From: Tubiluchus corallicola
Lineage: Eukaryota > Animalia > Priapulida
Direction: 5' to 3'
DNA: 64,000 nucleotides
Assembly: GCA_030141605.1 (NCBI GenBank)
Contig: JAQGDQ010000108.1
Location: 62,001-126,000 of the forward strand
In this document: positions 12,355-61,437 of the stretch, piece by piece
How positions within the stretch are numbered: position 1 is the first letter of the stretch
Layout of the letters: each line of letters starts with the position of its first letter
Notes under the pieces: generated by a model
Told to the model about the DNA's origin: nothing
Databases searched by the model: none
Seen by the model: the letters and a program-made list of their open reading frames with translations, nothing else
Program-made: the position numbers and the translations under genes

Positions 12355-13725
12355 TTAATAAAATAATATGCTGAATGCAAGTGAAAGCCACATTAAGGCA
12401 GCAAGAGTCATATTGGTTGCCAGAAACCGTGTGGCTCCTCTATTCAGCATTGCAAACACTCTCACAGGAGCACCAGAACCATCTCTGATATTCATTGGTA
12501 TGGCAAATATTGTGCTTCCTACTGGCGGCATCTGGTCCAAGTTTGTCAGAAGGTCAATAATGCCAATGCTGTGCTCTGCCTGGATCAGCTGATGAACCCT
12601 AAATGTGGGATCAGTGCCAGGATCCAATCCAACGTCAGATCCGAACAACTTGATTCGTCTATTTTCAATCAGCCATCTGACTGCTCCAACGTCAATTCCC
12701 GGAACGTGCCATATTCCTTTGTCATCCAGGCCAAAGACGACCTTCCAATCATCACCACCTCTGTGCCTACCTGCAATAAATGCTCATTGTATTATTAAGT
12801 ACTCAAACATTTAAGATAGATATGTTGAAACAAAGCGCTGAAAATTCGGTTGAGTCATTAATGGACAAAAACCATGCAATGATGGTAGAGATGTTTTTAA
12901 ACTTAAGGTCTTGCAGGCCATAGATCCACCCATCCACCATTCCACTTGCACAAGACGTTCCAATGCTTTTCGCAGGCGCTATGCGAACGTTTGTTTATAC
13001 TTTGTGTTCGAACATTATTAGAAAAACGATTGGTTGAGTTCTGTAACACGCTGATATCGCGGGAGAAGGGGCTCCTACGAAATCTAAATAGACCTGTTAC
13101 ACCTAAGACCCTTCCACGCACCTATGCACTTTCGAGCTGATATTTTAAACATACAAACTTGTCTCAAGCCACGCCAACAGATAGTGAGAAACCACACTAA
13201 AAGCTGCAGTTTTGTTGCGTTTTTTTCTCAACACATTGTTACATTTCTGAACTAACAAAACGTAAACCATTAAACCGTACCTGTATTTAAGAAAAATATG
13301 CTTCCGTCTGGTATTCTTCCGTATTCTTCTTCCCACTTATTGATGTCGTTCATTGTTGCAATATAGTCAGGATCTTCTTCCCCTTTGGCCGTTATGTCCA
13401 ACATCACCCCATTTCCAATCAGCTCGGTAAGAGGCATATCGCCAATTGTTCTCTCGCCTTCTTTGAAATGCATTGGAGCATCCAGGTGAGTTCCCGTGTG
13501 GTCAACTAGACACATCTTGTTCGTCTGATAATAAACTCCATGCTCACTTGTTTCTTTATAATGCACGCTCATGTTGAATGGTGGGTGTGAAGGAAGTGGT
13601 ATGGTTATCATGTTGTTGTGATATAGGCGTGTCAAGTCAATTATTTTTCGATGTTCATCTGCACATACTTGAACGAAAAAAAAGATTGTAATAGTTAGCA
13701 CAACGAAACAAAACCTAGCCTCCAT
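12355..13725 (-). CDS. Cyclase-family metal-dependent hydrolase (kynurenine formamidase KynB / isatin hydrolase-like), secreted and probably GPI-anchored
   Basis: Two exons, 13725-13281 and 12770-12355, joined by a phase-1 GT-AG intron (NTG|RHRG). N-terminal signal peptide MEARFCFVVLTITIFFFVQVCA; signature HTGTHLDAPMHF (HxGTHxDxPxH); WEEEYGRIPDGSIFFLNTG, HVPGI, DGSGAPVRVFA; hydrophobic C-terminal tail LAALMWLSLAFSILFY. Confidence 0.9.
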
Positions 13726-14271
13726 GGTAGGGTAGCAGAAACCAACTGCCTTTTCTTAGTAGAAAATTCTCCGAATAGTTTTAGTTTTATCCAGCGTAGC
13801 CGTCATTTACCACTAGGCCAAGGTTTGTTATTGTAAGATATGTTGCTTATACAACCGGCTTCCTAATGCAGAGCCAGTTTACACAACGTAACTCATTGTG
13901 ACACTAGTATGTTGGCGAGTTATGTGTCTTGAAGAAAACTTTCGCGAATAGCAGTAAATCACAAAATTAGAATCTGCACAAGTAATCACGATGTTTAATT
14001 TACTGAAATCTGCAGTAATTTCAAAATCAAAAAATATAAAATATCATGACCGGTCTAAACATCTAAGTCGCACTTATTCTATTGAACACTTTTTTCTTCA
14101 CTTCGGTAGCCAGTCAACAGGTTGGACTGTCAATTAGTCAGTTAGTTACTCGGTCGATCAATACTATGTGCAGTTGGGCCTTACTACAGTCAAGCGTTAT
14201 TTTAACAACCCTACCTGGCGCCACAGGGGATGTGTGCGGTAGAAGGTGTGATCATGGCGTGTGCTTAGTGA

Positions 14272-23657: not shown

Positions 23658-23983
23658 TTTGTGAAAACACTTTTACGATTAACTACTCAATGATTATATT
23701 TAGTAAAATGATCGAGTCCTATAGGAGAATTGCCCCAACATGAACCCAAACGCTTGGTGATGAATTTAGTAGAAATAATTACCCTGACATGTAAGTAAAT
23801 TTGGATTTGAGACTTTGATACTAAATTACCCTAGTCCAGTTATAATATATTAGTTTTAATACCACAAACCACCACAATATATATATTTACAACCTAAACA
23901 TAATACAAATACACTGGCCAATTTTGAAACACAATAAGCAAAATTATGTTAGCAACACATGTTTCACATTCTCATCAGTAATT

Positions 23984-26900
23984 CTAAATGCCAGACGTAC
24001 TAGGGTAGTACAGATGCTGCTGCTTGTAAAGTGTTTCAAGAAGCTTCCAACCTAGAGAAATAAAGTTATGCTTTAGGCCTTTAGAACTAACGTCAATATC
24101 ATATCGGGTCTTTTTCATTGTCTTAAATCGCAAAAATTATTAAGAAACTATTAAATGGTAAAACATCATTTTAGCATGTTACGATGCTAGATAAACCAAA
24201 CAATTGAGGGATTTGACAATGTCGACTTTTTCGGGAAACCGCGATTTTAAAATTTTGTGGTTAGCTAAGAAAAGATCTATCATGCGAATAACACAGGTGA
24301 TTGGCAGGCAAAAATGGGCGATTGATGAAAATTCTACTTAACAGTTGACCCAGCACCTTACACTGATGACTTCTAGTATTTTTGCAGCTGTGATCACATG
24401 TCCTACACTTACCATTACCAAAAAGTAAACCTCTCCACAGAGACAAGAAAACTGACATTTTAAAAAGATTTTTACAAGTAAGCTAGCTAAAGTGCCGAAG
24501 CAGTGAAAGTTGTGATTGGTATTATTTTAGTGTTGCATAATCTGCTGCAGCTGCTCTGTTGTCGCTGTCGTTTATCTTCAGAAAAGTCCCATCCCATTTT
24601 CTCAGTAAACATGTATAATAAGATTCTGCTTACAGCAGAATTTTCTTGATTTACCACCGGTTTTTATTATTTCTTTATTTATCATTTATTTACTTGTGCA
24701 TTTCGTTTTTTAGTAATTCGCACACGCACTGAGCTAGGTCTCTAAAGCACACTTCCCCGGTAGTGGGATTTATGTTTTTGTGTAATCCGTCAGCCTCGAG
24801 TCGAAAGCCACGGAGCAGACAAGAAAAAAGCCCTTAAGAGCCTTGCGTTTCGGACCATTGGTGAAAAAGTGACAAGTTCTGATTTCATTGAAGCTTCTAA
24901 TGTCAAGCACAACAGTACCTACACACGATGTTAGCTATTTTGAAAAACATTTTTTATTTGAAAAGCTCTGACATAAAGCATCTCCTGTCACAGAACCTTA
25001 CCGCTGGTTTTTTTGACGCAACCAAAAACGCCCACTAGTTCACTATGCCTACTAGTTCATTTACATTGCACGATTATTGTTAAATTTTTAAAGCCAGTAT
25101 AGCTAGTAAAGTCAGTATTTCTCAGGCTAGTATAGGAAGAATGTCGAAATTGGGCATATGTTTGTAGCCCCGAATTCAGTATTGCAGGAGTGGTACCGTG
25201 GCCGCTAAACCGTGAATAAGATTAATTGAATCCAAGTAACTCGCCAACTAAGACAGACTTTCCAAGTGTCAACCGAAAAACTATGTATGCAAATTTATAA
25301 ACATAGCCAACAATTTTTTAATTTCAGTGTTATTCTCGTGAACTTTAATATTATCATTTTACCTTCTTTTGGGTCACTGTGGTATTTCCTAGTCCAGGCG
25401 TCAAGTAACAAATTGCTGTAACGTTTTTTCTCAAAATATTTTAAATATTTATGAGATGTTGGACTAGGAAAGATGCGCTGGAAATTTCCACGTCTCTGAT
25501 TCTCATCTTCTACTTCTATTAGCTCACGTACATCAGCTGGTGTGAGATCATCCAAAATACTCGAACTAATTTCCTTTACAAAACAGTAGCAGATTAGAAA
25601 ATTGGATATCTGACATTCTGTCAGAAGTAAGTAGATCCACAAGACGATTATAAATATCATTTAGTGTTGTGTTTTGATTACTCAAAAATAAAATGCAGTG
25701 ACAGAAAAGCAAACAAAAATTTGTGGCATCTCGTATGTTGTTGATTAATAAACGTCTTCATATAAGTTTACCATATTATCAAAGTTGTATCACACGATAT
25801 ACGTTCACGTGAAAGACAATAGAAGTGTTTTAATGCGATTATACAAACAGACGCTTATTAATTAGATCAGTTTCGTTAAATCTTAGGCAATTGTTATTAA
25901 TGTCGGACAGTTCAGGTTTTCTGGAGTGCTGTAGCAACATTTACCTGCTAAGAAGTACTCCTATTCTTATAAAGCTGTTCTTGCAATACGCAGGAATATT
26001 AAGCATGACATTTAAAAAATGCATCGCAAATATGTTGTAATCTGAATTAACCCTATTGTATATTGTTTGTTACCGCAGACGATCGATTCGACAGCAACTG
26101 TCATCTTCTATGTTGTAAATCAAGACAAAACAAATAATCATTACAATTATGAGCTTTTAGTAGTGTCAAAATTGTACTGATTAATTGTTTTGGCTTGATT
26201 TATAGCATTGAAAATGACAGTTGCTGTCAAAACGATCGTCTGCGCTAATAAACAACATACAACAGAGGCAGGCTCTTTCATTGTAATTAGCTCTATTGTG
26301 TCCTTTGCAATTTCCACTCTACCCGTAAATAAATAATTGGTTAACATTCTTTTAGTGATCAACTGCTCATTTCATTAACGATTTAAATAGCTAAAAGTAG
26401 TTCGAATTGTTTTATTGTTTTCCATTATATAAACACTCAGAAAAGTACACTTACATGAAAAGCTATAACGTTAAGTGCCGCAGTTCAGTAACTCAAAATG
26501 TGAAATTGAATTATACAGTTTTGTGTAATAAGCATGTGCATACTGAATGTAATTTAAAATATTTTAATTTATTAGCTATTTCTTTAGTTCACAGCCACAC
26601 GGCAAAGGTTTAGCATAATCTCGAGCAATAACTACAATAATTTTTTTTAGTTAGTTATAGTTAATTATAAAAATCGAGAGCATTTTTTAAATCTGCCCCT
26701 GATTAGTTATAGCTTTCCAACCGCCTTAAAAAATCGCTAACCATTTCACCATATGAAACGAAACGTACATAAAAACGTATTCTTTATTCTACTGCACACT
26801 TGCCTTTTCTGATGCTTTTATACTAAAGTAAGCACGTTTTGTTTTTTCAATATCGGTAAGGCTAGAATCCCTTAGGGAAGCTTGTTGTGCTGGTCGTATT

Positions 26901-29266
26901 GTTTGTTGAGTATCAGACATCACAGAGAAGTTGCTAAATAAGAATTGGTTGTGAAATCAATTGTTATTTGAACAAAATGTTTTTACAATAAGCCTTTTCA
27001 CCGTTTCGTTGCGCGCACGCGCAGTTGCTATAGGTCATATACGTTATATACACACACACATATACATATATACATATATATATATATATACCACCGAAAT
27101 TAATATATAGCACTAGCCAAACCTCGCAAAAGAACTTTGCGCACGAACCAACCTCCACACCCCCAACCCACATCACCCACACCATACCACCCACATTATG
27201 CCACCAACGCCATGCGGCAGCCACCACACCATGCCACGTTCACCACAACAAAAAACCATGCGCCACACACACGACAACAACCACACCATGCAACCCACAC
27301 CAGAATACCCATACTATACCACAAACTACACTACATCACCCACACCGTACGACCCATACGAAATCATGCCACACCCGCCGCCCAAACCACACTACACCAC
27401 AACACACACACACCATATTCATTACACCATACCACCTACACCATGCCAACGGCACCACCACCCACATTATGCTAATAAACATCGTGCCACAGTTACCACA
27501 CCACACCACGTCCACCACAACAGCCACACCATGACACGTTTAAAAATAAGTTTTTGGATCTGGAAGAATTGATTTTTCCAATATTTCTTTAAATATCAAT
27601 ATGACGCTCATGGCCACAGTTTTTCATTTTTTATTTATTTATTGTACAATGACAGAGCCACAGTATTTCAAGATCAAACTATTTCAGTGGCTAGAACAAT
27701 ATCTTCTTCATTCTTCTTTGCTTCTTGTAGTTCGTGTACCAAAGGTTTTTTATAATATCGGCAAACTCCTACAAATCATCTGTCATTAATGACCCGCTGC
27801 ACTAAGTAACTGTTCCATATAAACGCCTGTTGAGTTTGCTCAGATAAAGAGATGTATAAGTTCGGACGAAGCTAATAATCTAAAAGGGGTTTGTTATAAG
27901 ATACTCCTGCATGCTCACTAATTAACGTTAATTGGTGATTCAGTTAACTAACTTGAATACCACTAAATTACCGAATTACTGTTATTAAACAAACAAATCT
28001 TTTCTTCTTTAATGATGTCTATCAAGCAACAACAATATCAGCGAAACGTGCAACATTATTGCAGTCTGGTAAGATCTTAGTATATTGCAGACGCAGTACA
28101 TTTAAAAATATCTCCAAAATCGTAGCTATATATTATTGGTACATACGGCTAAGCTCCACTTACCTGGTTTTGGTGATTTTATGGCCAAATACTCGCATTG
28201 ACGTTGTTGATGAGCCACTTGCCAAATGTTTTGGTACTTTAAAGCCGGCAAGGTTAAATACGGATTGTATCATGTCAGCATTAATACTGTGTTGGCTCAC
28301 ACTGAAATAGAGAACTTTCAGTAGGCCAAAATGACAAACACGTACAAGGCACCAACAATTCGTAATGGCTGTCCATGTATATACATATAGTGAAAGCATA
28401 CATAAGCACGTAGCGATAAATCATTTGCTGAAATTTACACTAGATACACGTAGGCACAGATACTTCTTTAGTGTAAATTACAACTTTTGATTTAATGCTA
28501 CGTGCTAACGTGTGATTTCACTATAAAGCTAAATGCTGAAATAATAATATAACTTTCACACAGTTCGAACTTTCTTAGCGTATACTGATTACTAATAATT
28601 ACTTTTTCGCTAGTTGTTGGTGCTTTCCATCTGCAGAGATGAGGGACATGTAGTATTTTTGGTTTTCGTGAAAACAGGCATTACATAGAATTTACAATAT
28701 TATAATTATTATTATGCTCTTTATCTTCTCCACTAATTCAATGACCGATTGATAGCGAAGCTTTTTTGGTGAAACAAAGTGCTGATATATATTACTAACA
28801 CATTCCACAGATTTTACTTGGTCATTGTTTTATTTTTTCTACTTAAGCCGTAATTCTCCAGAAAAAGATTATACAAAAACCTGTAGATCAAAACGTCCTA
28901 TAAATAAATGAATACCTTGGTGAAGTGTTAACTTCTATCAACCATGGCTTTAGGTTGTGGTCCAACATAATGTCAAATCCGTATAATTCGTGACAACCAG
29001 AAGGACTATTTAGGTATGTACTGGTGAGATCATAAATGTTAGATTCTGCACTGCAAAATAATTTGAGATTTACTTCGGAATTTTGGGACTGATGTGAAAA
29101 CTCAAAGCAACAAACAATTATAAGGAAATAAATTAAAGCATTTAATTATATACTAACTACGTCTAATATTTAAAGACTTATTTATTTTTTATTTTCTTAA
29201 AATTATTTTAACTAAGGCAACATGCATCTAACGTGCAAAAAATTGAAGTTTCTGAAAATAAGAGCG

Positions 29267-29312
<46 letters not shown>

Positions 29313-30426
29313 AAATTAAAATTTAAAATGACTATCCGGAAGTATTTAATTTGCTTCGAATGGTGGTCATAACGTCACCCTGTAGTACTGATGTCACAAA
29401 TATTTCGTAATTACGTCTTTGTAGAATTGAAAAGCCAATGGCTTATCAGTTTCTACTAATTCTCTTGTTTACCCATTAACTGCATGGACAAATGAAGTGA
29501 AATCAGCCCAATTTACACGCAAGTGTAGATGAACGCTCCTTAAGAATTAATTGCAATTAACACACAAGCTTTTCAAAATCTTCTACTAAAGTATGTGCTA
29601 GAGGCTATTTATATAATTTGATCAACTGCAAATCGAACTTGGGAGCCAAAGATTCAGCGAATTTTACACTGGGCAATAGTTCTAAGTGTATAAACACCCC
29701 TGCATAAGAACTCTAAAAATATTTTAATAATTGTTCAATAAGGCTTGGTCATGTACAGGTATATCATGGAAATTTGAAGATCCCGAGGGTAATGAAAAAC
29801 TGGTTTACCTGATAATCTGTTTCATAACAAGATCCTTTATCTTATCCCAGATGACATCCATGGGAATACCTTTGGATTCCAGGTATCGCCACATTGTTTG
29901 AAGATGCCTGAAAGAAAAGAACACATCTCAAAACACATTTAGAGCAGGAAACAGTCTTAATCTTCTTTGAAAAGAATGTATAGAGACCTTGGTTTTTCAA
30001 TTTTTATTCACCGCACAAATCAGAGCACGATTTTTCAGGAAGCAGGTAACGTACACAGACAAAATCGGGAAGAAAAGGTTAAAGAAGACCTTGAAGAAGC
30101 AGGAGAGTCTAGTTATGTTTATTGCAGATATTGGCTGGGCAAAATTCTAAGCGATTCACTTAATTGTATATTGTTGCCAGCCATGCACTGGTTGACATAA
30201 TTTCTTTTCCCGACTCTTAGTATGTCAAAGTTCGCTTAAACTATATATAGAGAAAGATTTCCTCCCACGAATATTCTGTTTGGTATCACACACGCCACAC
30301 ATCCTAATATGCAGAAATTCCAGAAATACTTTCGCCAGTCAAAGCCATTTTGCTTTTAGCATTATAGAGAGAGAGATAGGGGGAGGGAGAGAAGAAACAA
30401 GAAGGGGGGTTAGAGAGACGGAGAGG

Positions 30427-30457
<31 letters not shown>

Positions 30458-33187
30458 CGAGAAAGAAGGAGAGAGAGAAGAGGAAAGAGTGACTGTAAGT
30501 ACTTTTTTGTAGTATTATCGTTTAATCTGCAAATCAAGAACAGCATACATAAAGATTGAGTCTAATAAGTCGAAACAAAATATTGTGTAGCAAAAAATAC
30601 TCAAATGCAAAATACATAGTGAATGCTAATTAAATAGTAAAAATGTAACCTAAAGTATTACAGCACATTTTCTGACGTGTGAATGCAAATTTAGACGTTC
30701 AAAAGAGGAGTGGTGTAATTTTCTTAATTACTTACACCATAGCAGCAAATAGTTGGCTCAAAGATGAAATACATGTAGCACTAAGACAAGAAAAAATACA
30801 AATATTTGGCAAACATAATAGCGCCTTAATTCACATATTAAGCTTTGCGACGTTAGTGACTTCGCTCACACCTTTTACCTGCCTTATACTACTGCCACCT
30901 GGTGCTTGAAATTCAGGAAACATCCTCACAGCGACAGAGAAAGATGGAAAAAAAATTGGAAGTGACAATTTTAATGCAGGTTTAACTTGTGGTGCATGAT
31001 GACCAGGAATTTAGCCAAATGGTTAGGCGGAGAGGGGCAGTGTATGAGCGAACGATAAAATTAATACAACATATTACAGGCCTATGTCAAGTTATTATGG
31101 TTTTCTAATCTCTAATAAGAATTTTACTGTTGTTAGTACCATTTATGCGCAGATTCTTCTCCAATGTTTGCAAATCTCTGTTTATATATGGGACTGCCCT
31201 TATTGATGTCAATATTAGTAAGATGCATAAAGACGTCATGTAGTTTATCAGCGTCGGTGTTATATCTGAAAGCAAAAAGTGAAATTCTATAATATTTATA
31301 ATTATTTTAGTGCGTAATATGTAATTGCAAGAAAAACGCGAAATATCATGTCATTTTTGCTTGCTATATAAAGAAAGTTTTTTTATCGCCTGTTCTACTA
31401 TTGAGTGTGTCAACTATTGGTTGCTGCAGAGGACGAAGCTCTGTTGTGAATGCAAGAAACTCCAAAACACAGTGTTTGCAATAGATCAAGCCATGACATA
31501 TTAAACAAAGTTGGTGAGTATAAATTCACCCAGTGAAATAACAGAAGTAATAGAGAAAATGAGTGGTACAAATTCAACCAACTCCATGTTGAAAAACCGA
31601 TAGGATCTGTTACAAATGACAAACATTTCATTCGAGTTTCCATAACGCAATGCATCACAATAATCTATTCTATACAATGACAAGTACAGAAAGATTTTGA
31701 TCGAACTACCCCATATGACCTATCACTATTATTAAGAAGTACATACATAAAGCTACATTAACAGTGGATACATAATTAGGGGTGGACAGTAACCGAAAAA
31801 TTCCAACATCATACTCGGTTACGAAAAGAAATGTTATAATCTTAATAATAAGAGAGACATAAAGAGAGGCAAGGTACGGTACGGTACAACAAAAAAGCTG
31901 AAAACTACGATACGGAATTAGAGTACGGTATTTTTCAAAAGTACGGTACGATACGGAATACGGCATTTTTCTCGTACTTTTTCCGTACCTTTATCGAACC
32001 TTTTCCGTACCTCAGCAGCACACGCAAACAAAATGGCTAGATTGGTTTGTCTTGGGTGCAAAAGCGACAACAGCTGTTTAGTAGCCCCAGTTGTCGTTTA
32101 CCGTAAACTGCGTTTATTGTTATTCGTAAACCTGGCAGATTATTTCCCATGTTTGCTACCTATTGTTTTGAAAAAAAACAATGTGTCGTTTAGAGCTTTT
32201 CATGCCACAGTATGTAGATCCCAAGTGCACTTGATACGGGATTACGATACCATATTTTACTGTATTAGTACGGTACAGTATTTTTAAAGGTACGAAATAC
32301 GTTATTTTTTCGTACCGTACCGTACTGATAGACTTGAGTGGAGGTGGTGGTCAAACAACAACGCAACAAGACGTCAACCCGGCTGGAAGAGTGATTGTGG
32401 ATGAACGCAGCCACATGGAACGTGTTGGTTGGTTACTTCCCATTGTTCCGCAACACGGCGAATGTTACATCCAACACGCCATAAAATTGCTTACAACTTC
32501 GCCGTAAGCACCATTTATGGAAAAATAAAAATGCAATGGCGTAGGTTAAATCAATACAGATAAAGAAACAAATCAGCAAAGCAAACAAACTGTAAAAGAA
32601 GTTCTTACTTTTTTGTCGCAAACTTCGCTGCACCACCAGTGTGCATATAAATTCGCAGTGGTTCCATTGACGGCACATACACATATATTCGAAAATCAAA
32701 CTTACGCCCTTCGATAAGAAATGGCTTCGATAGGTACCTAAGCAATAAAAGTGCTTTATTTTACTATTTGCCATAACGTAATGATTATAAACAATTATAC
32801 CATAACGTGTGCACGTAATGTAGGGCTTACTCTGCTAATGGGCAAATACGTCTTGTGCAAAATAGGTAAACTACTCGACTTAATGTTAGTGCATAAAAAC
32901 CACATGTATTAAAACAAAAATAGAATAGCATACAATAAATGTACTTGCACGAGCACACCAATTACTAAAACGATAACGGCAATGACAAAGCTGAAACAGC
33001 ACAATTACTGCACTCACGGGTAGACTCATATAATTTTACGCGTCATCAAATAAGCACAAATTAATGACATACAATAATATAAGTAAGAAATACTTTAAAG
33101 CACGTTGAAAAATGTATGATTATATATACGTAAGTATATATGCGCTTATCTGATGTGTAGACTTTTATATGTGAATCTGATTATGTG

Positions 33188-33233
<46 letters not shown>

Positions 33234-36200
33234 CAAAAAAGCACAATAAATCAGACATTAAGAAAAACAGTCGCTTATCGTGTGGTGTGATTTTGGAAGA
33301 GATTTTGGAATTTATCAAACCAAAAAGGTGAACAGGTAATATTAGCGGAAAACATCGAACAACATCAATTGTATTTAATGTCTGTTGTTCTAATAGGTTA
33401 AACCTTTGTGTTTAACTATTTAAAAATTTGTTATCGCATCAATTAGCAATAACTTATATAGGGCTTACATAGATTTAATCGGCAGGATTATACATCAAAA
33501 TGTGAAGTACCATACATAAATTGCTATCTAATTGCAGATATGCATGGAATTCTTCGAGACTGCGGGTATATACCAACTGCCTGGTGGCGTGGTGGGTTAC
33601 TTAACCCGCACAATTCAGTTTTAGATTGTTTAACTAATTATTCTGTTACTTTGTCGGTTTGGAGGTTAGTAGTATTATGGTCGGCGACTGGTTTTCATTA
33701 CAATACTGAGCAAAGAGATGCATCAAAAAGAAAAAAAAATGTATTAATAATCACTCATTTAACGTTTTGGATTTATTCGTAATTTATAAAATTAAATGCA
33801 GCTGCAAAGTAGTTTGCTCAAGCACCTGGCGAGTTACAAGTGTTAATGTTGTAACATTCTAGACAGAGGACGCCATTTTTCGTTCAAAATGAGCAAGCCC
33901 AAACTTGACGTAATCGCGACTTAAAATTGATTTTACAAGTTAATTGCGGCGCTTAACACAATTTTATTGCTGTGATTTTCTAACATTTTTCTCAAATATT
34001 AAAATAAGCACAACTTCTCGAGAGCCTAAGCTTTTGTTGAGTTGATTAACTGATCGTTCCCCGCCTCACAAGTCTATTATGGCCGAGTTCCAAAAAAAGG
34101 AACAGCATTTTTGCGTTAGGCGCGGCAGTGGGAATAATTGCCTTATATGCTTCGCTTGAGGACTGAGCACGAACAGTGGACTGTTCAGTGCAGAGGTAGC
34201 AAGAGTCACTTGGACGGGATGGCCCGAGCGTTAAAAAGCGATTTCGAAAACGCAAATTACTGAAATAATGTGTGTTTAAGCTGCAACGTAAGCCTTGGTA
34301 CTTTAATTTTACAAATACCGGTTTTTCACATCTTCATACTAATACATTGTGTCGCGTTTTGGTGACGATGCGCTGAAGCGCAATGCAGCCACTTAACAAC
34401 TGAAAGAGCAATAAATTGTGATATTAAAATCCCGTTAGGGTAATTTCAATTTTTTGCCCCATTTTAAACAGCTGTAGATCTGCTCGATTGCTAATGCATT
34501 TTTTAATAATTAATATCATAAGTCTATACAAATTTGTAGCGAGAAGGCAAATGTTTAATATTCCTCTGTGTCCTCAACCTCAACACTCACAATCTTACCA
34601 CGAGCAGCGAGGAATTAACGTCTAAGATTCGTATCTTAGCTAGCAGAGTATAGATAACAATATTAAAGCTTTTAAAGATAAAAATATGGAGAAACATAAA
34701 TTCGAACAACGTTTATTTTCCACTTACTCTTGAATAATAGCCGGCGAGTGTGGTAAGCTTACTTGTTCCCTTGTGTTTATCAGTTTAATTCCCTTTCCTT
34801 CAGACAAGTTAGGCTAAATATGAGAAGAAAATAAACAAAAATTATTCTATAATTAGCCCATAGTTCGCTGAAGTTTTTCTGAAAATTCAAAAACATTTTC
34901 AATTATTTTCATCACTCTGAAATGTAAACTATTTCTCAAGGTATCGCAAAATATTTAACTATTAGTACTATTATTACTATTTATTTCGAAATTGCAGTAT
35001 AATATTCAATTTGTTGGTAGCATAAAAAATATAATAAAACACACATTACAACAATAAGTAATACAGTAGTTAGTCAATGGGGAGTACAATAAAAATAATA
35101 CATTACTTAATTTAATTTTGACATATCCAGTCTACTATTAGGTAGTCTGTTCAAAAATTCAAAATATTTACGCTGGACTACATTCACAATATCTTTCACA
35201 AACAATACATGATAACTCCTCTCATTAATCACATTGTAAGCGCACTTAGAGACAATCTGTCTTACATGCGAAATTGCACTTTGAGCACATTTCAATTGTT
35301 GTTAGTTGTGAGTTATAACCGAAAGTAGAGTCTAAAGAATTAATTGCATTTTTCGCGACGAAATTTACGAGACAGTTTTGACTAGCAAGACTAGATGAAT
35401 CTTAAATCTATTAATCTTAAGCTGTTAATCTTAAACAAATTATTATCAGCCGGTTCAAAATGACACAAGCTATTTTCTGGATAATATGCTCTCTAGCTTT
35501 GTCTTTCCAACAATCACATGCCCCACGAGAATCACAAGCGAAACTGCTACATCAATTATAGATAAAATATTTTCAAATTTAATAGACACAAATTATATAG
35601 CTGGAAACTTATTAAATGCTATCTCAAATCACCTTCCGACCTTTATAATAACTGACATACAAACTGATGTTCACAGTCAACGCACTTACAGTAAACGATA
35701 ACAAAAAGACGATGTTAAATGAAGCCCATGTACAGAACCAAACTATGCTCTACTGTAGTTTCAACATCATTTATTATTATTTAACTTTAGACACGTAAAC
35801 TTTGTTAAACTCTCCAAATCGCAGTCTTTTGGTTCACGCTAACATCACAACTTGTAGAATTTTCTGATTGCAAACATACATTCAGTATGAAAATTAACTA
35901 ATAGTATGTTTGCAATCAGAAAATTCTACAAGTTGTCATGATAATGTTAACCTAAAGACTGTGATTTAGAGGGTTTAGCAAAGTCATACAAACCGGTTTT
36001 TGAATCCACAGTGTTTTGTTTCTATGTGATTTAACAAACTGTTGAAAGTTCCACACTTCACTTGGCAAAACGAACGTTAAAGGCATGTAGTTGAACTGGT
36101 TCGATCCAAACTTTAAACGCATCGCCTTGTAGTTTCTCCATAAAAAATCTTTTCGCATGTTGTTGCCGGGAAAATGATCATACTGGTAAATAACACAATT

Positions 36201-36794: not shown

Positions 36795-39700
36795 TTTATG
36801 GCGTAATGCAATGAGTTGTGTATCATGTACACGACTATCGCACTATGCTTGTTTTTTTAATTAATATGTTAAAATCTTTTCCTGTAATTTATGCGGAGGT
36901 AATTTACTATCTTTGCTAATGGAGAGAACATGGTTAGATATGGTATTACATGTTACGAATCTTACAATTTTTCACATTTTCTTGTTGTTACTCAATCTGC
37001 CATTTTGTTTTGTTAGCATATTTCTGATTATCACATGCAGTATGCCTACAGTGCTCATTACGACTAAGTTTACTCAGGCATAGCTGGAGGACGAAAGACC
37101 ACGAGTCAAAAAACCACTTTCTACAATTTTTAAAGTAGTCAAAGATCAATAGTACACAAAAATATCTCAAATGGTTGTGGGTTGACCAGTGGTTCTTTGG
37201 CCTTTTATCCAATGACTGGCGTCCTTTGAGCTAAACTCACACCTTTACTTGTGCTTAACTACCCATGTAAAATAATGTTTTATCCCGTAACCTGCAATAG
37301 GCACCTACCTTTTGATAAGGTTTCAAAGCTCTGTACGACTTGTTAGATATTCGATAGCACCAACAACCCAACCAGTCATCATGCCATTTAGTTTCTGTAA
37401 AGTATCCGAGTGTAAAACAACTTCCCTTTTCATACACGCATCTGTGTATTTTTGTACCACACTTTTTATAGTCGGGCGTTTATTCGACGGACTGACTTAG
37501 AGCAGTTGGCCCTATTTGTATGCCTGCAAGAGCAGTCTCTCGAGCTCGAGCTATTCTTCTGTACAAGACTGAAACTTTCATGAAAGCAGGTGCTAAGTAT
37601 GTGTTGCCCCAGAATCATTTGATATTGGAGTCCAAAAAAATTAAAAATGCAGTATATCTTAGAAACTCTGCAAGACAGAATGAGGAATATGGCTGGTAAC
37701 GAGTACAATATTATGAACGAAAGAAAATCAACGCTGTTAAAATTTTCGTTCAAAATGCCATCTAAATTGTAAGATTACAAATAAGAATTCATTTACTAAG
37801 ATTTATAAGATTTATTTGCAAATAATCCAGTTTCAAAATCTTGAAAATATGACTTACGCTTAAAGTGAAGTTTAACTAGACGTTGTTTAGACACTCACAG
37901 TTTAGCAGACAGTTACGTAAATAACTGAATATACTATAGACATCAATTTTTGTTTGCAGTATATTCAATTGTTAATGTAATTTAAAATCTATTGTAATCT
38001 TAAAAACTGGTGAAATTTTACATTAAACATTATTTACATTAAACAATTGTAAGTGTCTAAATAAAATTTTATCAATGTTAAAAAACCATTAATTAATGCG
38101 ACGTTGTTAAAAAATTTCATTGAAAGTTTGCATACTGTAGTTACACAATTTCTTTTATATCTAGAAAGTTCTATGATTTATGTCACAGAACTAACTGACA
38201 AAGTGATGACACGTGTTAAGAGCTCGTTTCTAGAAGAAGTTTTTCATTTTTTTATTACAGGCCTCAATCTTTTTGCAATTGAAAGAAAAATCTGTCATAT
38301 TGTGAAACAACTGTACCCACATATTCAGCTACGCATTGTATTAAAATCTAGCAATAATTTAGGTTCTTTCTTCCTATTTAAAGAGAAAATACCACCACTC
38401 TTATAATTTGGTATTTTTTATATATTTCAGTGCAGCAGCAGCAATGCTGCTTACCTGGCAAAACGTTCAGACACTTTAAAGTGAGGATTTGTGAACATTT
38501 GGGTATTTCGTCTAGAACTGGCAAAGAAAATAAAAAAATCTCCTCAACCCAGCATTAATGACCATATTTGTGCCTCTGGCCACAAAGCTGATTTTAATAA
38601 TTTCAGCACTGTGAGCAGAGCTACAAATAACTTATTAATGAAAGAAAGTTTATCTGTGTACCCTAATAAGCCTTCTCTTAATGTACAAAGCAGTTCAATT
38701 CATTTAGCTTTATTTTCAAACATTTAAGAACGCGTCCGCGAGAAGACCATGCAAAATCGAAAAATTCCGGCACAAGGTTAGGTAAACCGATTCAGACCAA
38801 AGTTCGGGTATGAGGTCCACTAGTCACTAGTATTCACTATGTGAATCCGCTTGGCCCAACTCCTCATAGTAGCAGAGGTACGGCATAAGCCGATTTTCAT
38901 GAAAAAATACCTATTTTTCTCTATTTTTTACTCATATTTGAAGGATTAGCCATGCTCATATTGATCATGCTCATATTACTCATATTGAATGGATCTGACT
39001 CTGCACAGTATTGGATCTTGTTATCTTCTCCAAAACGACTTTTCGACTTTTGTCCCAAACCCCCTCTTTCGGCTCTACTGGGGGTCTTTAAGCACGCATT
39101 ACGTACAAGATGCAAATACTCAGTCATTTCAAAGTCTTATATCTCACCCACTGCGGGGGCGGGGACAAAAATATCGATATGTATGTGAATAGAGCATCCC
39201 ATCCCACTATGCTGCAGTGACAATTTCGATGGAGCGAATTTCCACCCTATTGTAAAAGACCCCTGAAAGAGGCATATATCAGGGTGAAAATATAGCTAAC
39301 AACGTTCATCAAAAAGCTTCGTGTAGGTAAACATGAGTTGTCAAATCTTGTCAAAATACTTCAAAACATCATAAATATTCATCTTTGGCAACTAAGGGCC
39401 TGGCCAGCACATTGGTTAAACTACCGACAGGATTGGACTCCAGCATTCAAGATGGCGGCCACTGCTGAACTAAAATGTTCGTTTTCTGGGCTGATTACCA
39501 GCGTTAAATGCGGCATTGTGACTAGTTATCCGCACGAAACGAATATTGTAAATCTATTAGCAACTTGCAAGGACTGGAAAATGTTTTATGTACTGTTTAT
39601 TTTCTATGCTTTGTAAATGTTATGTACAGGTTATTACCTATTTATTACTCATTGTCTTACATAGGCGTACAAGCCAGGACACAAAGAAAATTGCCCTAAA

Positions 39701-42700
39701 TCTGAGCGAAAGCCCAAAAAATATGGGACAGACTTGATATCATTTGTCCGGTGATTTTTAGACTGTAAAACATCGAAAATTTTTGTGCCATTGGCGCAAT
39801 CACACTATTAATATTTTTTGTCAGAAGTATCGATTTTGTGCCACAAATAAATCTTGGGCGAAGAAAAATTTTCTGAGCTAAATATCGCTGCCATCCCCCT
39901 AGAAGCGACCCATACGCTTATATTGTCTGATGTTTAGACTGTAAGATTTTCACTTTATCACTTTCCCCATGATATATTTGTCTATATTTCTGTATCTATC
40001 TTCTAGTGCTAATCTACCTGCATCGATAATTCTTTCTCTATTATTTAGATATTATGGTTTTGATTACTTGTACTACTCTTCAGTGATAGGATTATGCTGC
40101 TACAATAGGAACAGTATTTTGGACTTAGAGAAATTAATTCTGACTGAGTTTTGTAGTTTTTTCATTTTTGTACCGATATTCATAATCTTCTATGTATAGC
40201 CATGAAGCTTATTCATATAAAAAGTATAAAAAATGAACGGATGTATAAAAATGAACGGATTTCTATTTCATATGTATATACCAAGTGTTGTCAGATTCTT
40301 TCGCTAGCAATGACTCTCACTCTTAACAATCGGTACTTCTTTTCTATTAGAGGGCTTATTGTTTAGTCTTTCCTGGTATCCACTAGCGATTCAGTGTGTA
40401 GAGAACGCCCTGAATCAGGGTCGGACTCGGTACTAGGGGCATGCATGATGTCCTGTCCAGAAATCCATCAGAAAAGGCAATTATTCATATTTGTAGTCCT
40501 ATGAAAATTCCGACATAACTAAACCAATTTAAGATGAAATTCGCAAATTTCTAGCAATTTCCATGGCAAAGGAATCTATTGCTACTAGGAATGGAGAGCA
40601 CTAGTCACAGAAAATGCAGGTTAAACGTGGCTAAATATCTATTGTCATATACGACCTGAGCCAAGTATGTCTACTTTTTACACATGGACGGAATTACTAT
40701 GGAAAGTAAAAAAGTGTGTTGGTATGGTAATTTTTTCTAACAGTGCCCCCTCTATATAATGCCATTCATGATATTATCTCAGCTCGTGCGTTTTCATGAA
40801 ATTTAGAATACAAATTTGTCACTTATAATCCAGGATATAGATAGAAAAAATATTGAAAAACTACAAAAAAGGCGAATTTTGCTGATTTTTGTGAAATTTT
40901 AAAGTGCCAGTACTAAGTACTGAAACAGGCTCCAGCGAATTTTCTTTTTTATATTATTAGTGAGGATGATGGTTAACACATACATGAAAACCAGAAGTTC
41001 TGTACCCCCGCAGTGGGCGAGTTATGAGCCTTACAACTTAACCTCTCCCTGGACTCTTAACAAAGAGCCGAATTTGAAAAATCCCGTTCTTTGATACTAT
41101 TAATAGTATGTCAGAAAAAGTTAGGATATCAGAAGACAATGTCTGGGTCTATGTACCAGCCAACTTACATCGACCCATATATAATAGTTTATACAGGAGA
41201 AAAAGTTAAAATAACCCCCCAAAATAGCGATTTTTTGCCTCTTTTGAGGTCAATTTCTTGATGTGGTCATTTCTCTGCTAATAGTAGCTCGATCGATTTG
41301 ATATCTTGGTTACATGGTTTTGGGGGATTGCCCTTCATGTTAGAAAAAAATGATATAAATTCGTCGTCCCTCATGTGCCACCCTCTGCATGGTGCTCTCG
41401 CGGACTCGTTCTATTTGTTACTGTATCAGTTTCTTTTTTTCAGGACTGCTTAATCATTACCGTAAAACGGGGTGAGTTCGCCACTTTTTAGGGGTATTTT
41501 TTACGTTTCCTGCCATAGCAAGAGAATTACCCAACCGATTTTCTTAGTTCAAGCTTTATATTGCCTTTCGAATGAAACACTATCGTGGGGTGAATTCGCC
41601 ACTAACAATTTAACACTGTTTAATGCCATTCTAGGCAGCTGAAGTTAACTGGTTGTGATTGGCTGGTTGGGGGTGAGTTCGCCACCCTATGAAAAAATTA
41701 TGAAAAATGTCTAGTTTTAGCCGAATTATTGAAAATGTTCGATGGTGGGACGTTTTCAATAAGGGGCCCTACGTTGGCAAGGAAGGCTTGAACGTCTTGT
41801 GCACTGATCTTCGCGCGGGCGTCCTTGACGTTGCCAGCCACTCTGAAAACCAGATTGTTCCTTCGTGCGAATGATTTGACAAAGTCTATTCCAGGGGTGT
41901 TTGCCTTGAATCGTCGTTCCTGGATTCCCTTCACGTCGAGAACACTCTTAATCAGTAGTCGGAGATCGATGGCAGTCATTGGGAACCCCCACTCAGCGGC
42001 CACTTGGAGTGTTGGCGATTTCGTGCTCCTCGGCGGCGGAGAACACTGGCTGACCTCCGGTCTTCCGCGGATGACTTCGTGAGAGTTTGTCAGAAAGGGA
42101 CTTTCTTGGAACTCCGAATTGCCTCGCCGCTGCGCTGACTGTCCTGTTGGTATTCTTGACGGCATGTAGGGCAGCTTCCAGAGCTTCTGGGGTATAATTT
42201 TGGTATCTATGACCCGGTACAGGGGTGCAGGTGCGTGGCATGTTAAGTAGCAAGAAATAGTAGACAAATAATATGTAGTGCAGAATGGAATACTTCTAGT
42301 GCGAATTGAAAGAAGATAACTGTCGCAAACTGTTTATAATGACGGTGATCATGATATCTGTTCATTAAACACTGAACAATAGTTACAGCAAACACTACAA
42401 TGGCCATTACGTAGGGGGTGGCGAACTCACCCTCGGGTGGCGAACTCACCCCGTTTTACGGTATCTATTTGGCTTTTGTAAATACATAATTAGTGCATAA
42501 GCTAATGTATCAATTTCTTTAATAGTCTGCTTATTTATTAGCTTTTTGGCTTCTGTTGACTACTTAGTTAGTGCATAATAGGCTCTGCCTATATAAACTG
42601 GTTGTATGTTTGTAAATTTACCACTGATGATGACAGCAGTAGCCTGTCGAAACGTCTGGCATGACTATGACTTCGAAAAGTAAAAGTTTTAATAAAGATG

Positions 42701-44046
42701 TGTTGTTTTTAACTATAGATGTTTTTTTATTTTTTTAAGAAAATTTCCGCTTAGTCTATAATTATTAATAAATAGGTCCTTACCAATAAGACGGAAATTT
42801 GAGCCTCGCATAATAGATTCTATAAGCTCCGATTCATATCTCCCAATCTTCCACTTTAGCCGTTTCTTTATGTAAAGCGGCACCTCATCAACTATAAAAT
42901 TTTGTAATAAACGTTACTACTTAGTACTACAGTTTAGATAACATGACCATCTTTAGTTTTTAATGTTACGTCATATAAATTATTTCATTAACAATGTATT
43001 ATTACGTTCATTGAGGAGTGAGTTCATTAAACTGAACTGTCAGACAATACCTCGACGAAATTTTGTGAGCATTTCCATAATTAATGGATAAAACACAGCA
43101 TGAAAATTTTTCTGTAAAAAGTGGTTTCTTAGATTAGTGTTTTACAGAAAATTTATAATTTGTTTATTTACGTTATGTTATTGTAGCATTATTCAAAGAA
43201 ACTGAATATGATCCTGTGTCAGCGTGCGTTTGGATCACTGGTGACGGTAGCTCTGATTACTAACACTATATTTTTTATATACGAAATAAAACAGTAGATA
43301 GATAGATAGGTTTATTCAAAAAATTAATTGTAATTTACAATGGAATGAAATTGCTTTGTACGAGAACTAAAAAAGAAAATTAAAACACTAAACTAAACTG
43401 AAACTATAAAAATAAATGAAATAAAATTGTAAGTCAATCTAAAATTACGAATTAAAAGCAGTGCTTACTAAACAAACAATAAAACTAAAATAGCGTAAAA
43501 TTTCCAAACTAAGATTGAAACTAAAGCTGTCTTTATGCAACGCAAAAACTATAAAAGTAAAATTAAATTTCAGATTAAAAGGAAAAAGATCAATTTTATA
43601 AAACAATTTCTGTCTGTTAGATGTAGCGTCGAGTCGCTGCCATTAATAAATCATTTCATAATGATAATTACTCCCAGTTTTCCTTTTTGTCAGTTCTAAT
43701 TTGCGTCTTCACAATACTCAAAAATGTTTATTTAGTTTAACGCAATTTTTTGTGTTGTAATGCATATATAGTGTTGTATTGTTATACATAGATACACTGT
43801 CTGTAAATTTAAAATCTGTGTTAGTAAATTAAATTAATACAATTAACTCATACATTTTTTGTTGGAGCTACATAAATATGCCTAAATAATTACCTATCTG
43901 ACCAGGTAAAGCGAAATTGATTACAGGTTCGACGTTAGAGAAAATACTAGGAGTAAATGCTGGTATTCTCCGCTGGCATATATCGCCTGATGAAGAATTG
44001 TTCCTTTTCACACGGCACATGCTTACCGGCGTTACTTCTTCGATGT
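23984..44046 (-). CDS. TTLL4: TTLL4-like tubulin-tyrosine-ligase-like (ATP-grasp) protein with divergent active-site motifs
   Basis: Phase-consistent exons (minus): 44046-43894, 42891-42784, 37394-37309, 36182-35994, 34813-34728, 32737-32609, 31265-31140, 29907-29809, 29050-28916, 28301-28164, 26933-26804 (GC donor), 25573-25363, 24051-23984 (TAG). No internal stops. TTLL4-type motifs: [131 protein letters not shown]. May be a paralog rather than the ortholog. Confidence 0.9.
27143..27535. repeat. CCA/CAC-rich low-complexity satellite in TTLL intron
   Basis: Degenerate (CCACA/CACCA)n tract; explains the His/Thr/Pro-rich ORFs in the track. Confidence 0.8.
29263..29309. repeat. (GA)n microsatellite
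   Basis: Directly visible. Confidence 0.9.
30365..30490. repeat. Purine-rich imperfect (GA)n tract
   Basis: Directly visible. Confidence 0.85.
31778..32337. mobile_element. Non-autonomous DNA transposon (hAT-like MITE) with GTACG subterminal repeats
   Basis: Starts TAGGGGTGGACAG; multiple (G)TACGG / CCGTAC repeats in both orientations (31873-31965 versus 32311-32327); boundaries approximate. Confidence 0.45.
33189..33231. repeat. (TA)n microsatellite
   Basis: Directly visible. Confidence 0.95.
35480..35700 (+). mobile_element. LINE (CR1/L2-like) endonuclease C-terminal fragment
   Basis: [41 protein letters not shown] matches the APE-domain motif PTRIT..ATLIDNIF.N..G....DISDHLPIF. Confidence 0.7.
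35847..35936. repeat. Perfect 33-bp inverted repeat (hairpin, 24-nt loop)
   Basis: acaacttgtagaattttctgattgcaaacatac (35847-35879) pairs with gtatgtttgcaatcagaaaattctacaagttgt (35904-35936). Confidence 0.9.
36694..36794. repeat. (CAT/CGT)n microsatellite
   Basis: Directly visible. Confidence 0.9.
38255..38725 (+). mobile_element. Penelope-like retroelement remnant: degenerate GIY-YIG endonuclease
   Basis: Across stops and frameshifts it reads [82 protein letters not shown]...[17 protein letters not shown], a typical Penelope C-terminus. The 3' UTR continues at 41413-41457 and 42464-42700. Confidence 0.8.
38727..41412. mobile_element. Non-autonomous TIR DNA transposon (~2.7 kb), superfamily unclear
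   Basis: Left agaacgcgtccgcgagaagaccatgca versus reverse complement of the right end agaacgagtccgcgagagcaccatgca; a second internal inverted pair at about 39131-39160 and 41003-41032; possible ATTT target duplication (ambiguous by one base); no transposase ORF recognised. Confidence 0.7.
39660..39922. mobile_element. hAT-like MITE nested in the 2.7-kb element
   Basis: Ends CATAGGCGTA and TACGCTTATA; 8-bp target duplication ttgtctta / ttgtctga. Confidence 0.65.
41460..42461 (-). mobile_element. Internally deleted pogo/Tigger-type (Tc1/mariner superfamily) transposon
   Basis: Perfect TIR CCGTAAAACGGGGTGAGTTCGCCAC at both ends, TA duplication (41458-59, 42462-63), subterminal copies of ggggtgagttcgccac. 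Frameshifted transposase N-terminus: HTH_psq-like [33 protein letters not shown], then CENP-B-type [43 protein letters not shown], cut just before the DDE domain. Confidence 0.9.
42621..42659 (+). ncRNA. Minimal type I hammerhead ribozyme motif (Penelope-associated)
   Basis: cca-CTGATGA-t-gacag(cagtagc)ctgtc-GAAAC-GTC-tgg: conserved core, 5-bp stem II, cca/tgg stem I, vestigial palindromic stem III; AATAAA follows at about 42691. Confidence 0.75.
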
Positions 44047-46351: not shown

Positions 46352-48179
46352 TTCCTTGGCTAGGATGATCATTGTATAAGGTATGAACGTATAATTATTT
46401 TCTACATCATGGAGCATGTCTCAAAATCGTATTTTTAATTCTCTAGTCATGCAGTCATTATCGTTTACTAATTTAGTAGGCTCTGCAGGCTTGTAAATGC
46501 AGTAAGGCATAGTATGATGTAACACCAATCAGACTAATAAATTTATGCTGTATTGTAAATACCATAAGACGCGATCATTTTTGCTCATATTTTAACTCGG
46601 CGTTGTTGCCATTTTTAACACTTTCACTAAACGTTTTCAATCGTGCAATGTAAGGAATCTCAGTCATCCGGCTCTTCACGTCTGCTATCTCACTTATCCA
46701 AAAACAATAGCTTAATCCCAAATCTCACAAGTACAATCACAAACAGATAGCAAGTATAAACGATATCACCTACCTTCATAACAATTGTTTCGATTGTTTG
46801 CTACTGAATCTACAGTCATAATGAACACGACCTGCATAAAAAAAACAATTTCAACACACGTGGAGTTAAAATTACGATGCTAGACTGTAATATTAGTAGA
46901 CTTACTATATCGTTTTAATCACAAACAGAACGTATCCGCATTATGAACAGAATACCCTTTTTAAAACACGTTTGACGTTTATAAGTTTTAAAAGTTTAGT
47001 AGCTTTACGTCACCAGAACAAGTAATTCTGCCTGTAACATGTTTTCTCAGACTAAAGTCAATAAAATAATGTTGCTTGTATATTGATATACTACAAAATA
47101 ATGTTGATATGTTTAACACAGGCTTTTAAATTACAATAAGGAAGTTTTGTAAATAACAAGAGCGGTCATGGACAGTGCTCAGGAATTTGATAGGTGCTCA
47201 GTGTTATGTACAAACTATGTTAATTAGATTATGTTAGTAAACCAGGTCTGCAACATGTCACGCGTATTTATTTATTATTCATTTTAAATGCAATTCGCAC
47301 ATTTACAAGTACATAGCATTATTTATAAAAATGTTTAAACACTCAGCTCTACTATAAAAATTGTATTAGAAACTACTGAAATATTTGCATATAGTTCTGT
47401 ACGTATATATATATATATATATGAGTTAAAATATGAGCAAAAATGATCACGTCTTATGGTATTTACAATACACCATAAATTTATTAGTCTGAATGGTATT
47501 ACATCATACTAGGCCTTTCTGCATTTACAAGCCTGCAGAGCCTACTAAATTAGCAAACGATAATGATTGCATGACTAGAGAATTAAAAATACGATTTTGA
47601 GATATGCACATGATGTAGAAAATAATTATACGTTCATACCTTATACAAGGATCATCCTAGCCAAAGAATATACATATATACGTCAAACGTGTTTTGAAAA
47701 GGGTATTTTGTTCATAAGTCATAATGCGGATACGTACTGTATGTGCTAAAAATGATATAGTAAGTCTACTAATAGTACAGTCTAGCGTTGTAATTTTTAA
47801 CTCCACCTGTGTGAAAATTGTTTTTTTTCTATGCTGGTCGTGTTCATTATGACTGTAGATTCAGTAACAAACAATTGGTACAATTGTTATGAAACTAGGT
47901 GATATCATTTATACTGGCTGTCTGTTTGTGATTGTACTTGTGAGATTTGGGATTTTTTTGAATAAGTGAGATAGCAGGCATGAAGAGCCGGAAGACTGAG
48001 ATTCCTTAAATTCCCTGGTTCCAGGCAATTTATTTTCACAGTTGCACGACTGAAGACGTTTAGTCTTTAGACAGCAAGTGTTAAAAAACGGCAACGCATT
48101 ATATATAAAAATGTTTAAACACTCAGCTCTACTATAAAAATTGTATTAGAAACTACTGAAATATTTGCATATAGTTCTG

Positions 48180-49195: not shown

Positions 49196-50122
49196 GTACG
49201 TGAATACGCATCATTGTCGTCGTCGCGTTGTCGTCATTGCCGTCTTCGTCACCACCAGTCATATTTTTGTTAGTGGTTTAAAACTCTAGTGGCGTTTAAT
49301 TTCAATTTCATGAAATTCGCGTTGTGCACTATATCTTACTTTTAAGGATAAATTTTACGCATACTGAATAATTATAATAAAGTTTACAATTTTAAAGACG
49401 GTAAATATGATCTACCGTTATTTAACTATGCATTATGTAACAGAACTTACGACTTTCTGTGCACATTCTGTAGTAGTACTGCAGAACGACAAAAATGAAT
49501 GGAATTTGCACAAGTATCATTTCCCTTGAAATATGTTTTGAAATATTTTTTGAAATATATTCGATGAATAATTTCCGATTTTATCGTTCTTGGTAGAATT
49601 TTGGAAAGGGAATAAAGAATAAATTAAAAAGCAAAGAAGAAAGAAAGAAAGAAGGAACGAAAATAGGAAAAAGAAGTATAATATTATGGGTGTTGCAGAT
49701 TCAAATTCTTAATAGTATAGCAAGGATGACATCAGTTTCTTAAATATTTCTTAAATATTCACAAATATTTCATTATTTCATTGTGACAGCTAGTATGCAT
49801 TAGAAACGTTATTTTGTGATGTAAAAATGAAAAAAATCTTGTCAGCTATTTTTCAAACTAGGTGGTATCATTTATTAAGAAATTAGCTACATATTAACAC
49901 CAATATTGCACAGAGATTTTCATGGGTGAAAATTGGCAAATTCCATTTAATTAAAATACTCGCATTTTATTTATATTCCACGAAACTAAATTAATAACAT
50001 GTGTTTCTATTTCAGCAGTAACGTGATTTCCTCAGATGGTATACTAAGAAGCCTTTATTTCAGTGGAAATGTGATTTATTCTGCTCAGAAGGTGTACAGT
50101 AAAGCCTACGTGAAAAGAAGCC

Positions 50123-61437
<11,315 letters not shown>

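Follow-up and report, generated by a model that had tools for sequence, protein, structure and literature searches.

A fast-evolving TTLL4-derived gene of Tubiluchus corallicola with retained ATP-handling residues and altered substrate contacts: a candidate ligase with a changed donor

TTL-family enzymes phosphorylate the acceptor carboxyl group with ATP, after which the donor amine attacks (accessible part of PMC3563685), and according to the accessible part of the TTLL6 structure paper by Mahalingan et al. (10.1101/2020.06.07.139295), tyrosine, glutamate and glycine are the only additions known for the family. The same part of that paper, on which all residue roles given below depend, reports that R219 of TTLL6 holds the transferred phosphate, that Tyr-Ser contacts the donor via backbone amides, that the Q180 site reads the acceptor rather than the donor, and that the Ala mutants of R241 and K377 are inactive. 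K283 and K377 are described there as lysines that never vary among glutamylases, with other residues in their place in glycylases and TTL, and the K377 site therefore tracks donor identity. Among the described systems, animal TTLL4 is a tubulin monoglutamylase and branch initiase, and the glycylases TTLL3/8/10 provide a precedent for a donor switch by replacement of both lysines. In this study, 64,000 nucleotides of AT-rich, animal-type DNA from the priapulid Tubiluchus corallicola (positions 62,001 to 126,000 of contig JAQGDQ010000108.1; hereafter the window) were analysed, whose minus strand carries a predicted TTLL4-derived gene. Its predicted product, the window protein, retains the side chains that handle ATP, Mg and phosphate and has lost most of the contacts to the amino-acid substrate, suggesting a still active ligase whose donor is not glutamate and whose acceptor may also have changed, a reading to which we give a probability of about 0.45.

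Active-site residues of the window protein

Residue roles were fixed beforehand from the TTLL6 structure paper and mapped onto the printed chains of mouse TTLL6 (PDB 6VZT-6VZW), and the window protein was compared with 159 TTLL4/5-like proteins (15 of 174, with fewer than 250 aligned columns, were left out). All seven side chains for ATP, Mg and phosphate (K125, K174, R219, T263, N264, D346 and E359) were found to be retained, versus two of the eight amino-acid-substrate contacts (K283 and S363; Fisher p 0.007), which bears out the original prediction of an ATP-grasp core kept while the substrate contacts changed. The differences from TTLL6 lie at the Q180, R241, Y265, S266, H362 and K377 sites. 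At the R241 site, where the TTL/TTLL family has an invariant Arg (158/158 filled relative rows), the window protein has Lys. The K377 site, Lys in 158/158 relatives, is Asn or deleted. The His-to-Lys loop has 9 amino acids (aa) versus 11 in 154/154 relatives and the Asn-to-Lys loop 12 versus 17 in 158/158, and the resulting 2-aa and 5-aa deletions are found in none of the other aligned rows. Since R241, K377 and both loop lengths are uniform in the relatives, the motif changes go beyond chance. Changes in the WGxH loop and an Asp before HFPG (Asn in 154/154 relatives) add to those noticed at first, and the retained K283 (Lys in 159/159 relatives) had been overlooked.

The proposed loss of basic contacts stands for the late Lys, K377, whose mutation to Ala inactivates TTLL6. 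The change at R241 keeps the charge and K283 is kept, which leaves K377 as the sole basic contact to the donor that has gone. The Ile-Asp in place of Tyr-Ser says less about the donor than had been claimed, because binding there runs through the backbone. Likewise, Glu at the SARG/Q180 site had been counted among the signs of a different donor or acceptor; the site reads the acceptor, not the donor, and Glu is also found in 5 of 157 relatives, these five having otherwise canonical donor pockets. This site is Arg in 45/45 animal TTLL4s and varies among non-animal proteins (Cys 76, Arg 71, Glu 5 and Gln 5 in the full set of 157 rows), and with Glu the window protein has neither the Arg of initiases nor the Gln of elongases. 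As Cys is about as frequent as Arg, the Arg/Gln rule fails to cover the non-animal members. The five Glu-bearing proteins (P0055, P0060, P0069, P0090 and P0106) form one clade, one member of which is named as the green alga Cymbomonas.

With K283 kept and K377 lost together with the 5-aa deletion, the window protein lacks one of the two gamma-carboxylate lysines that glutamylases have. Its polar 377 site resembles that of glycylases, from which it differs by the kept K283 (hydrophobic or polar residues occupy both sites in glycylases) and by its TTLL4 ancestry; glycylases lie outside the trees presented here. With TTL (PDB 4I4T, 3TIG) the window protein has in common the lack of a Lys at the K377 site and possibly the short loop after EVN, its own being one residue longer. 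However, the window protein is not TTL-descended, and it has Lys and Asn where TTL has Glu (283 site) and Tyr (377 site).

These residues also bear on whether the window protein is still a glutamylase, one of low activity or directed at an acceptor other than tubulin, with Lys241 and K283 holding the donor. The kept K283, the conservative change at R241, the backbone nature of the Tyr-Ser contacts, the canonical-looking proteins with Glu at the Q180 site and the many changes in acceptor-side loops all agree with such an enzyme. However, K377A by itself abolishes TTLL6 activity, the window loop contains neither Lys nor Arg that could replace K377, and an Asp adjoins the donor carboxylate site, as in 0/159 relatives. 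We consider continued glutamylation rather improbable.

Descent from TTLL4, the sister protein P0218 and selection

PF03133 (TTL) is matched by four exons of the gene, three of them above the curated cut-off, and the exons match TTLL6 structures. The spliced model shares 38-41% identity over about 520 aa with named TTLL4s of Spea, Haliotis and Equus. In a FastTree tree it was basal, near long outgroups, which is likely a long-branch effect; in a mixture-model tree of 37 rows it was nested in animal TTLL4 (support 98/95), and its terminal branch measured 1.71 versus a median of 0.45. The tree placement, the N- and C-terminal extensions and the exon boundaries, where compared, are those of animal TTLL4, and judged from its sequence the window gene is a fast-evolving TTLL4 derivative. 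Besides the long branch, it differs from animal TTLL4 in the initiase Arg replaced by Glu, R241 replaced by Lys, the lost K377 and the two loop deletions, and no long N-terminal region was found for it.

A word search with exon 12 yielded 2 proteins among 85 candidates and led to P0218, an unnamed Logan protein of 465 aa on a 1976-base contig suggestive of a transcript. P0218 grouped with the window model with support of 100/99 when the C-terminus was included and 96/92 for the core only, the bootstrap being not fully settled in either run. The two have 19 rare residues in common, a number that does not exceed 6 in any canonical animal row (45 rows), which supports their being truly related. 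They are 45% identical overall, with cores 40% and C-termini 69% identical, the reverse of canonical pairs: among 901 such pairs the C-terminal excess never surpassed 6 points, and pairs with more than 60% C-terminal identity had cores of 61-90%.

P0218 also retains 7/7 of the ATP, Mg and phosphate side chains, versus 0/8 substrate contacts unchanged in both proteins (Fisher p 0.00016). Against the background of strongly conserved positions surviving in both (76/119), the 7/7 retention has a p of 0.04. Both proteins have R219 and basic residues at sites 241 and 283, the residue of P0218 at the K283 site being Arg. The loss of K377 is likewise common to the two proteins, with Phe at that site in P0218 and a loop 6 residues short; a Lys within this loop, unlike the window loop, is a possible partial stand-in. 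Judged by match ranges only, the P0218 stretch over the loop matches TTL 309-354 at equal length (46 to 46), and the TTLL6 and TTLL7 matches end within the loop. The register of the TTL match sets the Phe at TTL residue 343, which we take to be the Tyr placed at the K377 site by the TTLL6 paper. P0218 has a 1-aa insertion in the HFPG loop, not a 2-aa deletion. The SEG/AKF/NID signature, which the original prediction sought in relatives, is absent from P0218, the sole relative found (Arg, Arg and Ser at the 183, 241 and 266 sites): the loss of the old pocket is conserved, a new pocket is not. Folded with an alignment, P0218 gave a predicted local distance difference test score (pLDDT) of 87.8 and TTLL6 as best Foldseek match (E 1e-28), in a model that leans on canonical rows; it is this model, not one of the window protein, that matches TTLL6. 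The single-sequence fold was uninformative (pLDDT 35), and an ESM Atlas search with P0218 returned generic TTLL clusters.

Searches with other parts of the gene gave no further member. No second TTLL copy was found by tblastn within the window, an exon 4 word search of proteins gave no candidate, and none of the 24 proteins from an exon 9 word search was close. In a profile search, the best 150 of 20466 matches were taken as TTLL4/5-like representatives; P0218 was missed by these 150, and the window protein would rank near 24 (410 bits versus a cut-off of 334), so that it is absent from the library searched. A metagenome scan with exon 4 found nothing, and one with exon 12 found 24 loci, 12 of which were inspected and were canonical-looking or C-terminus only. 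Exon 10 alone had no TTL structure match. One metagenome locus (L018:1-1149) is a TTLL4-like stretch that lacks introns and is interrupted by several in-frame stops, one inside the HLTN motif. The literature searched, with most subscription papers outside reach, neither describes such a subfamily nor reports on Arg-to-Lys at the R241 site, and PMC13052805 and PMC12340829 contributed no decisive point.

The open frame bears on whether the gene is a decaying duplicate becoming a pseudogene. Against 45 rows assigned to animal TTLL4 by the FastTree tree, the window model is altered at 28 of 129 positions with at least 90% conservation, versus 12 to 18 in the worst canonical rows (two named as flatworm), by counts that are not leave-one-out; 10 of 56 near-invariant sites are altered. 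In the coding sequence of the gene, the frequency of nonsense changes is 6.9% of that of missense ones, so that about 11 stops would be expected from 0.3 neutral changes per residue; none was observed in 551 codons, and no frameshift. An open frame after so much change needs purifying selection. The two in-frame deletions in active-site loops are in line with decay, as is the retention ratio, which rises only modestly from variable to invariant sites (0.62-0.67 to 0.82 of expectation) and leaves room for a spell of relaxed constraint. However, all 12 introns are intact, conserved sites are retained at 15/15 in the C-terminal extension (13/19, 22/30 and 51/65 in the three catalytic domains), and the sister protein P0218 is intact. 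Of the outcomes that the original prediction had linked to decay, the signature is indeed not conserved in P0218, but the frame is open and neutral decay appears very unlikely; ongoing loss of the duplicate is accordingly given very little weight.

Gene structure and neighbouring features

The gene model was built by six-frame translation and splice-site inspection, and its junctions are predicted. It comprises 13 exons (44046-23984, minus strand; Table 1) with an open frame of 551 aa, the stop codon lying at 23984. Eleven introns are GT-AG and one, intron 11 (26803-25574), is GC-AG. The stop-free spliced frame reported earlier was thus recovered, and translation placed all its motifs at the minus-strand positions first quoted. 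That range, 28164-36182, covers exons 4-10 only, with three more exons upstream and three downstream, and the earlier length of 561 aa was not reproduced exactly: adding a candidate Met exon, phase-compatible with the next exon, would give 567 aa.

A splice artefact was considered as the source of the 5-aa deletion and, on present evidence, rejected, because exon 10 starts at the same phase-2 position in three canonical TTLL4 metagenome loci (L008, L012 and L020) and the intron before it contains no 15-nt micro-exon candidate or alternative acceptor. Two introns contain inverted repeats with arms of 88 and 100 bases, respectively, and about 85% complementarity; the first begins about 10 bases past the exon 4 donor and could influence splicing. 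The DNA transposon remnant in intron 2 is presumably pogo/Tigger-like. Three further genes lie in the window. The plus-strand gene with a P-loop exon resembles, we presume, neuron navigator/unc-53, and the hydrophobic N- and C-terminal ends of the Cyclase product suggest a secreted or anchored form. No functional link of these neighbours to the TTLL4-derived gene was seen.

Table 1 Features of the window (positions counted from its first nucleotide).
Feature	Position	Strand	Basis or remark
Candidate upstream exon, in-frame ATG	46774..46831	-	AG/GT ends, phase 1; no homology support; frame open further 5'
Exon 1, TTLL4-type N-terminal segment	43894..44046	-	aligns to Haliotis and Equus TTLL4
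Exon 2, N-domain start, conserved Thr-Pro altered	42784..42891	-	alignment
Exon 3, N-domain, WGxH loop altered (Gly to Cys, His to Arg)	37309..37394	-	alignment
Exon 4, HFPG loop (Asn to Asp, 2-aa deletion); K125 and K174 equivalents retained	35994..36182	-	Pfam TTL E 1e-5
HFPG	36176-36165	-	exon 4
Exon 5, beta5-beta6 loop, Glu at Q180/Arg acceptor site	34728..34813	-	alignment
SEG Glu	34801-34799	-	exon 5
Exon 6, KFD and R219 retained, Lys at R241 site	32609..32737	-	Pfam TTL E 3e-14
GAAKFA	32634-32617	-	exon 6
Exon 7, HLTN and K283 retained, Ile-Asp in place of Tyr-Ser	31140..31265	-	alignment
HLTN	31225-31214	-	exon 7
Ile-Asp	31213-31208	-	exon 7
Exon 8, C-domain helices	29809..29907	-	
Exon 9, Mg ligands D346 and E359 (GFD, EVN) retained	28916..29050	-	Pfam TTL E 1e-12
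GFD	28980-28972	-	exon 9
EVN	28935-28927	-	exon 9
Exon 10, loop shortened by 5 aa, K377 site and surroundings without Lys	28164..28301	-	alignment
SQHSINAD	28297-28274	-	exon 10
Exon 11, linker and beginning of C-terminal extension, GC donor	26804..26933	-	alignment, splice inspection
Exon 12, conserved TTLL4 C-terminal extension	25363..25573	-	78% identity to P0218
Exon 13 with stop codon	23984..24051	-	poly(A)-signal-like hexamers at 23860, 23642
Intronic inverted repeat	35799-35984		
Intronic inverted repeat	26053-26265		
Transposon remnant, intron 2	41458-42463		27-base terminal inverted repeats, broken frame with HTH_psq domain
Multi-exon gene with AAA-type P-loop exon	about 2400-8250	+	
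Two-frame gene, kynurenine-formamidase-like	12358-13755	-	Pfam Cyclase
Multi-exon ankyrin-repeat gene	about 50100-61500	+	long low-complexity last exon

Possible donor and significance for the TTL family

Because the residues of the first step are kept in both proteins, those selecting glutamate are not, and the lost site is donor-specific, the explanation we prefer is that the ligase is active and its donor has changed. Such an enzyme would likely still use ATP and Mg to activate a protein carboxyl group, the equivalents of D346, E359, K125, K174 and R219 forming the acyl-phosphate. The short loop, apparently of TTL length in P0218, would reshape the pocket for the donor side chain, so that glutamate is likely no longer selected and a different amino acid or amine is attached; the donors of the window protein and P0218 may differ. 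As the acceptor groove is also altered, the acceptor may be something other than a tubulin tail. We infer that the gene may be expressed as a duplicate beside a canonical TTLL4, with a catalytically active product and a changed donor.

Several results weigh against a changed donor. R241 is essential in TTLL6, and Lys at that site is found in 0/158 relatives; the retained K283 fits continued acid binding. For the window protein alone, the 7/7 retention is not significant against its own background (p 0.17). The two proteins differ at the 183, 245, 268, 269 and 377 sites, no new pocket being conserved, and P0218 has a Gly-to-Ala change at the G181 site of its loop. In addition, a single sister sequence was found, which lacks the start of the N-domain, and for the core-only tree the program warned of two long branches meeting. 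Finally, TTLL12 persists without measurable ligase activity, according to the accessible part of PMC10889654, although it is a separate ancient subfamily with a SET-like domain and the window protein a recent TTLL4 derivative.

The TTLL12 precedent, the altered essential Arg and the absence of a shared new pocket keep a pseudo-ligase under consideration, that is, a folded, ATP-binding and catalytically silent protein kept for its conserved C-terminal region, either as a scaffold that binds microtubules or partners or to compete with the canonical enzyme. The C-terminal conservation far above that of the core, unlike in the canonical pairs, would be expected of such a protein, as would pocket changes that differ between the two proteins in the manner of relaxed constraint; the altered near-invariant sites and a core net charge of +10, just under the canonical +11 to +30 (a weak point, the ranges nearly overlapping), are in the same direction. 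However, both proteins, despite long core branches of 1.94 and 2.77 changes per column, keep the Mg ligands, R219 and the phosphate lysines, together with basic residues at sites 241 and 283. In our judgement, a silent protein is only somewhat less probable than the preferred explanation.

Extending the preferred explanation to both proteins leads to a more speculative and doubtful proposal: an undescribed animal subfamily of TTLL4-derived ligases that would have abandoned glutamate, converged on a TTL-length loop and diversified its pockets member by member, adding a fourth kind of TTL-family modification, with a neutral or aromatic amino acid as the donor of P0218 and possibly a carboxylate-free amine for the Lys241/Asp266 pocket of the window protein.

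In summary, an intact, fast-evolving TTLL4 derivative with altered substrate contacts is predicted in T. corallicola, and the two natural variants, the window protein and P0218, make the donor question directly testable. Should the window protein prove inactive, TTLL pseudo-enzymes would gain a second kind, a result of more limited interest. If it is active and its donor has changed, it would be a candidate for an additional letter of the tubulin code or for a novel type of protein modification, and would offer a natural template for the donor engineering proposed in the accessible part of 10.1101/2020.06.07.139295.

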